A stretch of DNA of 38,243 nt from a virus. Its lineage: Duplodnaviria; Heunggongvirae; Uroviricota; Caudoviricetes. The first letter of the stretch is position 1. Each line of letters begins with the position of its first letter. A model generated the notes under the pieces. It searched no databases, had not been told where the DNA came from, and worked only from the letters and a program-made list of their open reading frames with translations. Positions 1 through 36,948 of the stretch are shown here, piece after piece. The position numbers and the translations under genes were made by a program. Where the stretch lies: positions 1-38,243 of IMG/VR virus record IMGVR_UViG_2721755660_000008; one strand, given 5' to 3'.

Positions 1-2133
1 TCACTTAAAAGGAGTGTTTATCCTAACAACTCTCAAATAAACATCTCTTATATTTTCACCTCCATTTGGCCTTAAAATTGTTGCTGAAATAACTCCACTT
101 TGTGAAGCAGATACTGTTGCGTTATATACTAATGAACTATTGAATTGTTGAGCGTGTATTTGCCTTGATGTTGTTTCAATTTGCTCTCCGGCTCTCATCA
201 TAACTGCATGTTCTGAAAAACACCCGCCAGCACCAGTTGTTGTTGTCGCTGTAACCTCAACTCTATAGAAATACATAGCAAGCACACCTGAGTTTACTGA
301 ATTATTTGGAACTGGCACTTGTACGGTTATTGAGACTGGGCCGCTATCAACTCCTGTTGTCTGAGCACACCAGCCAATTTCACCATTCTGAGATATTAAT
401 GTGAATATGCATCGATCTTTTGTCCCAGCGTTTACCTGATACGTTGTTGTATAGGTGGCGCCATAGAAATGCTCTACGGTTATGGCAGTACCGAAGTTCT
501 CTCCCCAACCAGTCCATGAAGGCCAGATACTGGCATTGCTTTTAATGGCTACGCCATTATTGATGCACTTCAGAGACACTTTCCCATTATTACAAGAACT
601 CAAGAGCACAGGGACTCCAGGAATGCTGTTCCTTAGTGTTATCTCAACATCCGGCTGCTCTGCGGTTACCAACATTAATGGCTCGACTGTTCTTGGAACC
701 GTATTGAGCGGTATGTTAATCTCCATGTCACGCACTCGCGTCCTTGTACCGCCACATAGAAATGCGCACACACCACCTACATTAGCAGGAAGATAAAGTC
801 GAACACCTTCAAAAGACAAATCAAAAACATCCGATTGAGAATTTGTGATGATTTGAATAAGGTGTATAGGGCCGTTAACATTTTCTCCCGTAAAATTACT
901 CTTACTGGTGATGTTTCTGTAAATACCACCTGTTCCTGATACTTTTGCCGCAAACACTGGTGTGTCCGTCATGGTGCAAACCAAACCATCAACAACACAC
1001 CCTGTTGACCCCGTGAGTTGTAAAGTTACATTGCAGCCGCCGTATCTGTTAGATAGAGGTTCTCCGAACTCACCACAGTTTGTTATAGAACCACTAGTGT
1101 TATTGATATACATCAGGTGTGACGGACCATACGCACCGAAACTTTCGTCATGCCGCAATGTCCCATACACGTACTCAATATTGCATCCTGCAAAGTTGTT
1201 AATAAGTGCGCATGAATAGTGTGTACAATAGATGTTAGAGAATAGAGAGCCTCTAAAATCACCCTCATAACCAGAAACAAGGAAGTCGTAGCGATTATCA
1301 CTGGTTTCACCGACTGCCATCGCATTAATCAATTTGAAACGATACGCGTTTGAATTCATCCCGATAAAGCCACAGAACGCAGCTTCCCACGGGCGAGTAA
1401 TTCCATAGCGAGTGGTTGTTGTGCCCCCCAAAGGATAGCCGCCTTTATAGACAGCATTAAATCCCATAATGGTCACATCAGGATTCCTGTTCATGAAGAC
1501 CAGAAATCCAGTTTTCTCATGAGTTATTTTAGCACCGTTAAAATCAATATATGCACCAGCGGGAGGAGTGATGACATTTTCCTCATTCATCACCATACGA
1601 TATGTGGAACCTCTCTTCATGAGGCATCTTCCAGTCATAATAGCATTAGTCACCGCCACTGTATCATCAGCTACACCATCTCCAATTGCTCCATATTGCT
1701 CTGGCGTTGCCCAATATGACAAACTATCCGCTACTGTACCAGCCAAGTATCCAATTTTAGTTGCACCATCTTCTTCAGACAGCTCACTTCGAAATTGATC
1801 AGGGTCATACTTCAGCACATTTGGGAATTTGAACTGCTGTGCACCATACGCATCATAAACAGCCATAGAATGGCCTTGCTCAGTTACGAATTTGGCAATC
1901 TGTCCGTTATATACAGGGTAACCAGCGGCGTTAATGATGATTGGTTGCGAAACGGGAACATGAGAGCCGTCTTCGTTCTCTACATAAACCTGAATCTGGT
2001 TTTCTGGATTTACCGGGTCAGTGTCAATTTTACCGATATAAATTTTGCCATTGGCTACGGCTTTAAAAGAACGAGCCATAGTGAAGAGTTGCGAAGGCAT
2101 GCTAACTACAACATTGGCTGTAATGTCTGTCAT
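1..2133 (-). CDS. Tailspike protein: P22 gp9-type N-terminal head-binding domain plus a different beta-helix (pectate-lyase-like) receptor-binding domain
   Basis: ORF 1..2169; N-terminus [11 protein letters not shown]...[10 protein letters not shown] matches P22 tailspike head-binding domain; start placed at Met13 (2133) with GGAG RBS upstream; motif [12 protein letters not shown] typical of beta-helix depolymerases. Confidence 0.9.
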
Positions 2134-2189
2134 TTGATTTGCTCCAGATACAAGAAATCGCCGCAGCATGGCTACGGTGAATTTTGGGC

Positions 2190-32141: not shown

Positions 32142-32167
32142 GCCCTCCAGTGTGAGGGCGTTTTTTT
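32142..32167 (+). terminator. Intrinsic terminator immediately upstream of the 322-aa gene
   Basis: GCCCTC-cagtgt-GAGGGC followed by GTTTTTTT; GGAGG RBS of next gene follows. Confidence 0.6.
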
Positions 32168-32179
32168 GATGGAGGATAT

Positions 32180-33148
32180 ATGAGTGAAGTAACAGATTTA
32201 GTTGTTATTGAAAAAGCAAATGCAATGACTGTATTTCAGTCTGCCGACCAGATTGAAGAAATCCTTCAAAAGGTTGAACGCGAAGTTATGTCCTTTGTGC
32301 CTGATATCACAACGGCAAAGGGCAGAAAGGAGATCGCTTCTCTGGCGTATAAAGTTGCGCAGACGAAAACATATCTCGATGGTCTTGGCAAAGACCTTGT
32401 TGCTGAACTGAAGGAAATTCCAAAGCTAATTGATGCCAACCGCAAGACAGTGCGTGATCGCCTTGATGAGCTGAAAGCCAAGGCACGCCAGCCTCTTACT
32501 GATTATGAGGAAGAACAGGCGCGGATTAAAGCTGAAGAAGAAGCTAAGGCAGCAGCTGAAGCTCTCGCAAAGCAAATTGAGTCTGACCATGAAATAGCGA
32601 TTTTGATGGATCGCGAATTTGACCGCCAAAGAGAAGAGGCAAGACTCAAAGCGGAGCAGGAAAAGCGAGAGCATGAAGAACGCTTAAAAAGAGAAGCTGA
32701 AGAGAAAGCCAGAGCAGAAGCCGAAGCAAAGGCAAAAGCCGAAATTGAAGCAGCAGCAAGGCGAGAAGCAGAAGCTAAGGCCGCAGCGGAACGTGCAGAG
32801 CGTGAACGCATTGAAGCAGAGCAACGAGCACAGCGCGAAGCAAAAGAGGCAGCAGAACGAGCTGAAAGAGAAAAGCAGGCGGCAATTGAAGCAGAACGCC
32901 GAAAAGCACAGGAGGAGGCTGAACGAATCCGGCGCGAGGCTGAAGCAAAAGAGCAAGCCAGAATAGCAGAAGAAAAAAGAATCAAGGAAGAAGAAGAGCG
33001 TAGAGCAAAGGATAAAGCTCACCGGAAAGAAGTAAATAACAAAATACTTGCTGACCTTATCAAGGTTGGTGCATCAGAAGATGTTGCTAAAAATATCATA
33101 ACAGCCATCGTAAAAGGCGAAGTATTCGCAACAAAAATAACCTACTAA
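32180..33148 (+). CDS. Hypothetical protein with ~150-residue E/R/K/A-rich coiled-coil repeat region, 322 aa
   Basis: GGAGG RBS; low-complexity central region (AEAKAKAEIEAAARREAEAKAAAERAERERIEAEQRAQ...). Confidence 0.7.
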   Translation: MSEVTDLVVIEKANAMTVFQSADQIEEILQKVEREVMSFVPDITTAKGRKEIASLAYKVAQTKTYLDGLGKDLVAELKEIPKLIDANRKTVRDRLDELKAKARQPLTDYEEEQARIKAEEEAKAAAEALAKQIESDHEIAILMDREFDRQREEARLKAEQEKREHEERLKREAEEKARAEAEAKAKAEIEAAARREAEAKAAAERAERERIEAEQRAQREAKEAAERAEREKQAAIEAERRKAQEEAERIRREAEAKEQARIAEEKRIKEEEERRAKDKAHRKEVNNKILADLIKVGASEDVAKNIITAIVKGEVFATKITY

Positions 33149-35230: not shown

Positions 35231-35398
35231 ATGATAGGACTTGCATACAATCCCGGCATTCTTCCGGCAGAAATGATTATTCGCCAACGCGTAAAGCCAA
35301 TGCCATCGAGAGAGGAATTGCTAAAGAGAAATTCTTTTCCGTCAGTGAATCAAAACAAATATCTGAATGCGATGTGGCGCAAAGGAGGCAACCAGTGA
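35231..35398 (+). CDS. Small hypothetical protein (55 aa)
   Basis: ORF 35078..35398 trimmed to MIGLAYNPG start with GAGGAA RBS 6 nt upstream. Confidence 0.3.
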
Positions 35399-35975
35399 GC
35401 AAGATTGACTATCAGGCACTGCGTGCTAAGGCAGAGAAAGCAACGTGTGGTGTGTGGTCGCTCGAATATGGAGAGGGCCGATTTGATGGTGATGATGCAC
35501 TAATTCATCGCGAGGCTGCTGGATATATTCCTATTTGCAGAATTGAAGGAGCGCATCCAGAAAGCGGTTTCGATGAAGATTTCCAAATGGAACAGCAGGC
35601 CAATGCTGAATTCATCGCCGCAGCCAGTCCAGTTACCGTGCTGGCATTGTTGGATGAACGGAAAGAAACCAGCAATACATCAAATGCCGCGACCAGGAGA
35701 ACGAGGATATTGCGCTAACGGTAGGGAAGCTGAGAGTTGAGCTGGAAGCAGCAAAATCAAAACTCAACGAGCAGCGTGAATATTACGAGGGAGTAATCGC
35801 GGATGGAAGTAAGCGCATTGCTGAACTGGAAGCGCGGGAAATACTGCTCCCGGAACGTAGCAGTATGCTTCATCGAACAGATTTTCACGAGGATTACCAA
35901 ACGGTAATGGCATACAAAGTTTCTGAGGTCATCGCTGCAATCCGCGCCGCTGGCATTCGCATCAAAGGAGAGTGA
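35395..35975 (+). pseudogene. Ead/Ea22-like gene split between two reading frames (N-terminal 107 codons in one frame to 35718, coiled-coil C-terminal part in the -1 frame to 35975)
   Basis: GTG start with AAGGAGG RBS; frame A ends ...LALLDERKETSNTSNAATRRTRILR*; the -1 frame is open from about 35660 and encodes ...ENEDIALTVGKLRVELEAAKSKLNEQREYYEGVIADGSKRIAELEAR... with no start codon. Confidence 0.4.
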
Positions 35976-35976
35976 G

Positions 35977-36168
35977 ATGTACGGACAAATATCAATCGTT
36001 CGACCAGGAGCATGTGACGATCGCGAAATACGAATAATTATTCGTCTGGCAATGGGGAAAACAATAACTGCTCTCATTACCCCAGAAAATCTCGCATTAG
36101 CATTAACCGGAAAGTCAGACCAGCCAGTAGAGCTAAAGCTGCGAAATGTTGAGATTAAGGTGAAATAG
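35977..36168 (+). CDS. Hypothetical protein, 63 aa
   Basis: ORF with GGAGAG RBS directly after the Ea22-like coding region. Confidence 0.5.
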   Translation: MYGQISIVRPGACDDREIRIIIRLAMGKTITALITPENLALALTGKSDQPVELKLRNVEIKVK

Positions 36169-36170
36169 CT

Positions 36171-36665
36171 ATGACCACTATTACCAAAGAACGTATTGAA
36201 TTGTTCATTAAAAATCCGCTTGAAAACGGGCTTACTCGTGGCGAACAAATGGAACTGGCACGAATTGCTCTGGCATCGCTGGAAGCAGAACCGGTGGCGT
36301 GGAAGGTAACATTCACGCAAATTGATCGTGAATATAACACGTTCACTGGTATGTATTCTGACAAAGCAGAAGTCGAACGGTGGGTGCGGCTGCATAAAGC
36401 ATGTAATTTTCGGGCAGATATAACACCGCTTTATACCGCCAAGCCAGTGCCGGTAACTCCGGATAGTTGGATAAGCTGTAGTGAGCGAATGCCGAAAGGG
36501 TATGCTGATGTGTTAGTGACCGACGGAGAGCATGTCGAGGTTAAATGGTGGGATGAATCTGGGTATTGGAATAGTTGGACGGAACTTAACTCAGATATCT
36601 TTGCCGATGAAATAACTCACTGGATGCCGCTACCAGAACCGCCGCAGGAGGTTAAACGTGGCTAA
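36171..36665 (+). CDS. DUF551-domain protein (ea-region)
   Basis: 164 aa; C-terminal W-rich region DSWISCSERMPKGYADVLVTDGEHVEVKWWDESGYWNSW typical of DUF551. Confidence 0.7.
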   Translation: MTTITKERIELFIKNPLENGLTRGEQMELARIALASLEAEPVAWKVTFTQIDREYNTFTGMYSDKAEVERWVRLHKACNFRADITPLYTAKPVPVTPDSWISCSERMPKGYADVLVTDGEHVEVKWWDESGYWNSWTELNSDIFADEITHWMPLPEPPQEVKRG

Positions 36666-36933: not shown

Positions 36934-36948
36934 TGGCGGTTTTTTTCT
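36924..36948 (+). terminator. Intrinsic terminator upstream of xis
   Basis: ACCGCC-tgat-GGCGGT followed by TTTTTTTC. Confidence 0.65.

Follow-up and report, generated by a model that had tools for sequence, protein, structure and literature searches.

Ea22 of phage lambda is a tetrameric protein of 182 aa, encoded in the exo-xis region, that favours lysogeny; its C-terminal domain alone fails to reproduce the activity of the full-length protein, suggesting that this activity depends on the rest (PMC10834534, PMC7093339). The tetrameric, pro-lysogenic activity has been shown by experiment for lambda and Stx-phage Ea22 (PMC7093339, PMC10834534). In HK620, hkaG, one of the ead genes of the P22 group, is annotated as one ead/Ea22-like family protein and occupies the same position in a P22-like genome as the gene described here.

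The DNA analysed is IMG/VR virus record IMGVR_UViG_2721755660_000008, all 38,243 nt of which are referred to as the window. The window comprises a whole P22/HK620-like prophage with a tailspike gene (1-2169, minus strand), portal, terminase, lysis, replication and immunity genes and a lambda-type integrase gene. The integrase stop codon ends on the last base of the window, and in an identical public contig torS follows directly (L162, 5850-6324). A related prophage, L161, is located between torS and torT.

We consider it probable, at roughly 85%, that the ea22-like locus of the window is an Ead/Ea22-family accessory gene of a P22/HK620-like Escherichia coli prophage residing beside torS, and that a GGG run in this gene has very recently been shortened by one G. 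The locus is an ordinary frameshift-truncated copy of a well-known and very common family, and there is nothing new in its site, mechanism or family.

Organization of the ea22-like locus

The genes of this region are arranged in the order Rad52-like, SSB, anti-RecBCD, DUF2737, ea22, a 63-aa ORF, DUF551, a 55-aa ORF, Exc and Int (Table 1). The position of ea22, in the early-left accessory region that extends from the recombination genes to xis/int, is the one characteristic of the family. The TGA of the DUF2737 gene overlaps the ea22 start codon GTG at 35395 (GTGA). A first reading of this DNA, made without database searches (the sequence-only reading), had described a GTG-initiated ORF with a strong ribosome-binding site, an Ead/Ea22-like N-terminus and a nonsense tail with a stop at 35718, and each of these elements was found where it had been placed. 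Residues 1-89 of the ORF are the authentic Ea22 N-terminal region, and residues 90-107 (KETSNTSNAATRRTRILR) form an out-of-frame tail of 18 residues. A longer version of 114 aa, beginning at the upstream GTG 35374, has no record in the exact-protein look-up.

In the -1 frame, a TGA at 35655-35657 is followed by an open stretch that begins at 35658 and ends with the TGA at 35973-35975. Its translation starts with TERNQQYIKCRDQENEDIALTVGKLRVELEAAKSKL and ends with AAGIRIKGE before the stop codon (in full, TERNQQYIKCRDQENEDIALTVGKLRVELEAAKSKLNEQREYYEGVIADGSKRIAELEAREILLPERSS MLHRTDFHEDYQTVMAYKVSEVIAAIRAAGIRIKGE). It had been described earlier as open to 35975, as continuing Ea22 and as devoid of a start codon; the first two points hold throughout and the third as far as ATG 35865, which is the first ATG, GTG or TTG of the frame and is preceded by about 69 codons without a start. 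The ATG of the 63-aa ORF is placed 1 nt past the stop codon of intact ea22 and its Shine-Dalgarno sequence (AAAGGAGAG) within the ea22 3' end; normally, the 63-aa ORF would be well placed for translational coupling to full-length ea22.

Table 1. Coordinates of the ea22-like locus and its immediate neighbours in the window.
Feature	Position	Strand	Basis or remark
55-aa DUF2737 gene, upstream	35231..35398	+	PF10930 in the gene called on L162 (identical to the window)
Shine-Dalgarno sequence AAAGGAGG	35381..35388	+	6 nt 5' of GTG 35395; read directly from the sequence
Truncated ea22-like ORF, 107 codons + TAA	35395..35718	+	Translation VSKIDY...LLDERKETSNTSNAATRRTRILR, then stop
Mutation site, GG vs GGG in every intact allele	35660..35661	+	Alignment with intact homologues
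Out-of-frame remainder of ea22 (-1 frame; 104 codons for the coiled coil and the short C-terminal part)	35661..35975	+	Translation, ORF list
63-aa ORF, downstream	35977..36168	+	Same gene annotated after intact ea22 in L001, L002 and L163-L166

Relation to the Ead/Ea22 family

When one G is put back into the mutation site, the gene encodes a protein of 193 aa instead of the 107 aa encoded as it stands. The restored protein matches the Pfam family PF13935 (Ead_Ea22; gathering score 27 bits) with 128 bits over the whole profile (1-139), whereas the actual 107-aa ORF reaches 61.6 bits and covers profile positions 1-83 only. The Ead/Ea22-like assignment proposed from the sequence is thereby borne out. 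A search of NCBIfam gave no family match for the protein, and the only match in a PDB sequence search, a coiled-coil one to BRE1, was insignificant (E = 0.78). The N-terminal region, the coiled coil and the C-terminal region are not encoded by a single uninterrupted ORF, as the frame breaks at 35660-35661. Judged from its sequence, the locus represents the Ead/Ea22 family in disrupted form and not as a functional full-length member.

Lambda Ea22 is likewise a member of PF13935, and over lambda residues 15-105 it shares 68% identity with the restored protein. In the restored protein, the central coiled-coil segment LLDERERNQQYIK.RDQENEDIALTVGKLRVELE.AKSKLNEQREYYEGVI is nearly identical to that of lambda, and the C-terminal motif AGIRIKGE is common to both proteins. 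This terminal motif aside, the C-terminal ~45 aa show no relation to the C-terminal domain of lambda Ea22. Ahead of the mutation site, the N-terminal region of the restored protein comprises 89 residues and exceeds that of lambda, which has ~44, and the site coincides with the start of the central region of lambda Ea22 (lambda residues ~44-45). Unlike lambda ea22, the copy in the window is frameshifted. The DNA of HK620 hkaG is 92% identical to that of the window over 91% of the gene, with mosaic differences in mid-gene that divide the alignment into two pieces.

In their intact form, the 34 nt that surround the mutation site are found exactly in lambda ea22 and in lambda-sized contigs. They were also encountered in assemblies of unrelated organisms, among them Streptococcus equinus, Shewanella canadensis, Streptomyces, Prevotella and Piscirickettsia (among L125-L160). 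The contigs from unrelated organisms include three of 48,542, 48,442 and 48,392 nt (L126, L129 and L140, respectively), and many others are below 1.2 kb and of low coverage. These lambda-sized and short low-coverage contigs suggest contamination of the assemblies concerned with phage lambda DNA.

A one-base deletion in a GGG run

A megablast comparison found the gene family in 2,568 of 5,426 complete E. coli genomes, with full-length matches of up to 97% identity. In four of the matches (L001-L004), the annotation gives one ead/Ea22-like CDS of 579-585 nt, and all four have GGG at the site. In the five-way alignment of these genes with the window, the sole column gapped in the window alone is found within GAACGGGAAAG, which in the window is GAACGGAAAG. 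Alignment with intact Ea22-like genes, which had been proposed as a check, thus located the indel as GG instead of GGG, and of the two readings offered at first, single-nucleotide indel or programmed frameshift, the former proved apt: 1 nt is missing from a run of three Gs. The lost G falls between codon 89 (CGG, Arg, the last one shared) and codon 90 (GAA in the intact gene, AAA here), and which of the three Gs was lost is indistinguishable.

The restored 193-aa protein is on public record exactly (P0016, 124 contigs, UniRef UPI000BE81A76, e.g. EEC7793327.1). Since the two frames together, minus one base, reproduce a protein known from that many contigs, the two-frame pattern is not due to chance. 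Intact alleles were identified in the E. coli drafts GCA_032666325.1, GCA_014371465.1, GCA_044508735.1 and GCA_033692575.1 (L163-L166), in which the gene is 582 nt long and, once the G is removed, has 0 mismatches to the window in 581 nt. Compared with L163, the missing G is the sole difference of the window between 32047 and 36526 (about 4.4 kb); compared with L165, two substitutions and one 3-nt indel occur besides the G in 6.2 kb. An intact allele differing by the indel alone, as expected for a recent frameshift pseudogene, is therefore available. The neighbours of the gene in the intact-allele assemblies are those of the window (Rad52-like, SSB, anti-RecBCD and DUF2737 upstream, the 63-aa ORF downstream), and in L165 the integrase DNA is 99.8% identical to that of the window and is likewise followed by torS. 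What distinguishes the intact allele is GGG and a product of 193 aa, in contrast to GG and 107 aa in the window.

As no other change separates the window from L163 in the interval compared, the deletion is very recent. This recency explains why the -1 frame is still perfect, and the preservation of that frame is thus no evidence of selection for a gene read in two frames. Exact matches to the intact 34-mer (GGG) number at least 120 in viral contigs and 36 in genome contigs. All complete ORFs in the loci fetched with it (143 of 143) read through the site in one frame and continue for at least 42 codons downstream, and translation of 139 of the fetched loci gave 89 distinct mosaic proteins of 83-392 aa. 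A phase-variable tract was also considered as a candidate and rejected, the run being merely GGG/GG. Runs of this length are generally too short for slipped-strand switching.

Recoding and independent expression of the second half

The sequence-only reading had left room for a programmed frameshift. A programmed -1 ribosomal frameshift or transcriptional slippage would yield both the 107-aa product and a full-length fusion, and it could account for a -1 frame that is perfectly kept and has no start of its own, as well as for the rare AGG, AGA, AGG and ATA codons in the zero-frame tail. However, these codons are the out-of-frame reading of CAG GAG AAC GAG GAT ATT, and the recency of the deletion accounts for the preserved frame. 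The search for a slippery heptamer (X XXY YYZ), which had been recommended, found none at any zero-frame position of the gene, the overlap at 35658-35715 included, and the gene contains no homopolymer of 5 or more. The RNA downstream of the site (35662-35780, 119 nt) has a minimum free energy of -23 kcal/mol, compared with -22.45 ± 3.34 kcal/mol for shuffled sequences (z = -0.16), and so gives no sign of a structure. Moreover, every homologue examined is single-frame with GGG, namely L001-L004, L163-L166 and the complete ORFs fetched with the 34-mer. Programmed frameshifting is effectively refuted by these observations, and we regard recoding of either kind as extremely improbable.

Expression of the second half as a gene in its own right has a probability close to nil. 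It is prompted by a public gene call on L162, in which an ORF of 98 aa that hits Ead_Ea22 is predicted at window positions 35679-35975 (L162 3285-3581). The first codon of this ORF is ATC and no Shine-Dalgarno sequence precedes it, whereas the first canonical start codon, ATG 35865, leaves only 36 aa. Two ORFs with an independent start for the second, an organization that would have spoken against a frameshift, do not occur among the homologues (L001-L004, L163-L166). The public 98-aa 'second gene' is an annotation artefact created by the frameshift.

Spread and reality of the deleted allele

The deleted allele was found through the exact-protein look-up alone. The exact 107-aa product is present on three NCBI draft contigs (50-200 kb) under two protein accessions, EFF3638512.1 and EFI3215681.1. 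One of the three, L162 (GCA_012643165.1, AASYOC010000011.1), shows no difference from the window in any of the 5,849 nt compared and has torS directly after the integrase gene. In nucleotide searches, a 65-nt probe placed on the site matched 14 of the complete E. coli genomes, 13 of them over its full length at 98.5% with 66 bases in place of the 65 of the probe, i.e. one extra base, and the fourteenth only partially at 93.7%. The probe had no exact match among the 5,426 complete E. coli genomes, and the corresponding 33-mer with GG had no exact match in genome_contigs, viral_contigs or metagenome_contigs.

If the missing G were a homopolymer miscall, the true genome would have GGG and an intact gene of 193 aa. 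Such a sequencing or assembly error would fit a change of one base in a short homopolymer that is the sole difference from the intact allele over about 4.4 kb, and it would fit the absence of the deleted allele from complete genomes and the three contig collections. On the other hand, the same truncated product is encoded on three contigs with two accessions, and two of these contigs differ in size (123,755 and 127,031 nt). A run of three bases is also a poor substrate for homopolymer errors, and about 30 kb compared with a relative contain no other isolated indel found in coding sequence. We therefore consider an error unlikely. Because the truncated product comes from more than one assembly, a true mutation inherited within a small lineage is favoured over a one-off sequencing error, with the proviso that the three carrier drafts could be re-sequenced or clonal isolates and hence not independent.

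In the comparison with the related prophage L161, for which about 30 kb were aligned, no further isolated indel was seen in coding sequence, an indel at the edge of an alignment block (30285) being left aside. It is the third isolated 1-nt indel relative to L161; the other two, at 32161 and 36946, are both located in T-runs between ORFs. At 32161 the run is a T7 with the preceding A missing and forms the tail of an intrinsic terminator upstream of the ORF at 32180, and at 36946 it is T7 versus T6, between the 55-aa ORF and xis. The large structural genes of the window are all open. An error-prone assembly or a decaying prophage was considered as well and is not supported, given the intact structural genes and a comparison with L161 free of other isolated coding indels.

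Probable consequences for Ea22 and the prophage

Following the loss of one G, translation would start at GTG 35395, proceed through 89 authentic residues and 18 out-of-frame codons and terminate at the TAA at 35716-35718. The 104 codons at 35661-35975, which have neither a start codon nor a ribosome-binding site, would thus remain untranslated. With the coiled coil and the C-terminal region missing, Ea22 function is probably lost or severely altered. We infer this loss with the caveat that residues 1-89 stay intact in the truncated product, which is predicted to be well expressed from its strong ribosome-binding site. Coupling to the 63-aa ORF at 35977 is probably reduced, as termination would now take place 258 nt upstream. 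No effect on phage viability is expected, and the prophage taken together is probably not affected, since Ea22 is dispensable and the remainder of the 38-kb prophage looks intact.

A different view of the same allele is that the 107-aa product, with its 89 authentic residues and basic tail of 18 residues, keeps or gains an activity of its own and represents a truncation selected in a small E. coli lineage, in place of neutral decay. Such an activity could, for example, consist in partner binding without the coiled coil, but we regard a selected truncation as quite improbable.

Given the loss of one G as the preferred explanation, the appropriate annotation for the ORFs at 35395-35718 and about 35661-35975 is a single frameshifted ead/Ea22-like pseudogene, and not two genes or a recoding site. 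The locus provides a clean example of very recent decay in an accessory gene that is not essential to the prophage. Provided that the mutation is real, the strain is also a natural ea22 truncation mutant, with which the reported pro-lysogenic effect of Ea22 could be put to the test in a P22-like phage.

Other decayed alleles and the neighbouring accessory region

A different decayed ea22 allele was observed at 11 loci, ten from IMG/VR and one from a GTDB genome contig (L009, L014, L041, L043, L073, L083, L090, L109, L112, L123 and L143). It has an extra A (AAAA to AAAAA) in ...ACAGCAAAATCAAAACTC..., resulting in an 83-aa product that ends in ETAKIKTQRAA, and a 4-nt deletion a few codons further on restores the original frame. 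The presence of this allele indicates that frameshift decay of ea22 is recurrent.

The DUF551 gene (36171-36665) encodes 164 aa in the window, L163 and L166 and 279-281 aa in L164 and L165, and its L161 counterpart is broken into three fragments annotated as pseudogenes. Mosaicism is pronounced in this accessory region, as is the tendency to decay. A further short Ea22-like product, P0003, is 65 aa long, ends in ...EDFQM and is encoded on 28 contigs, including one of 4.9 Mb; it may be another truncated allele of the same N-terminal region.
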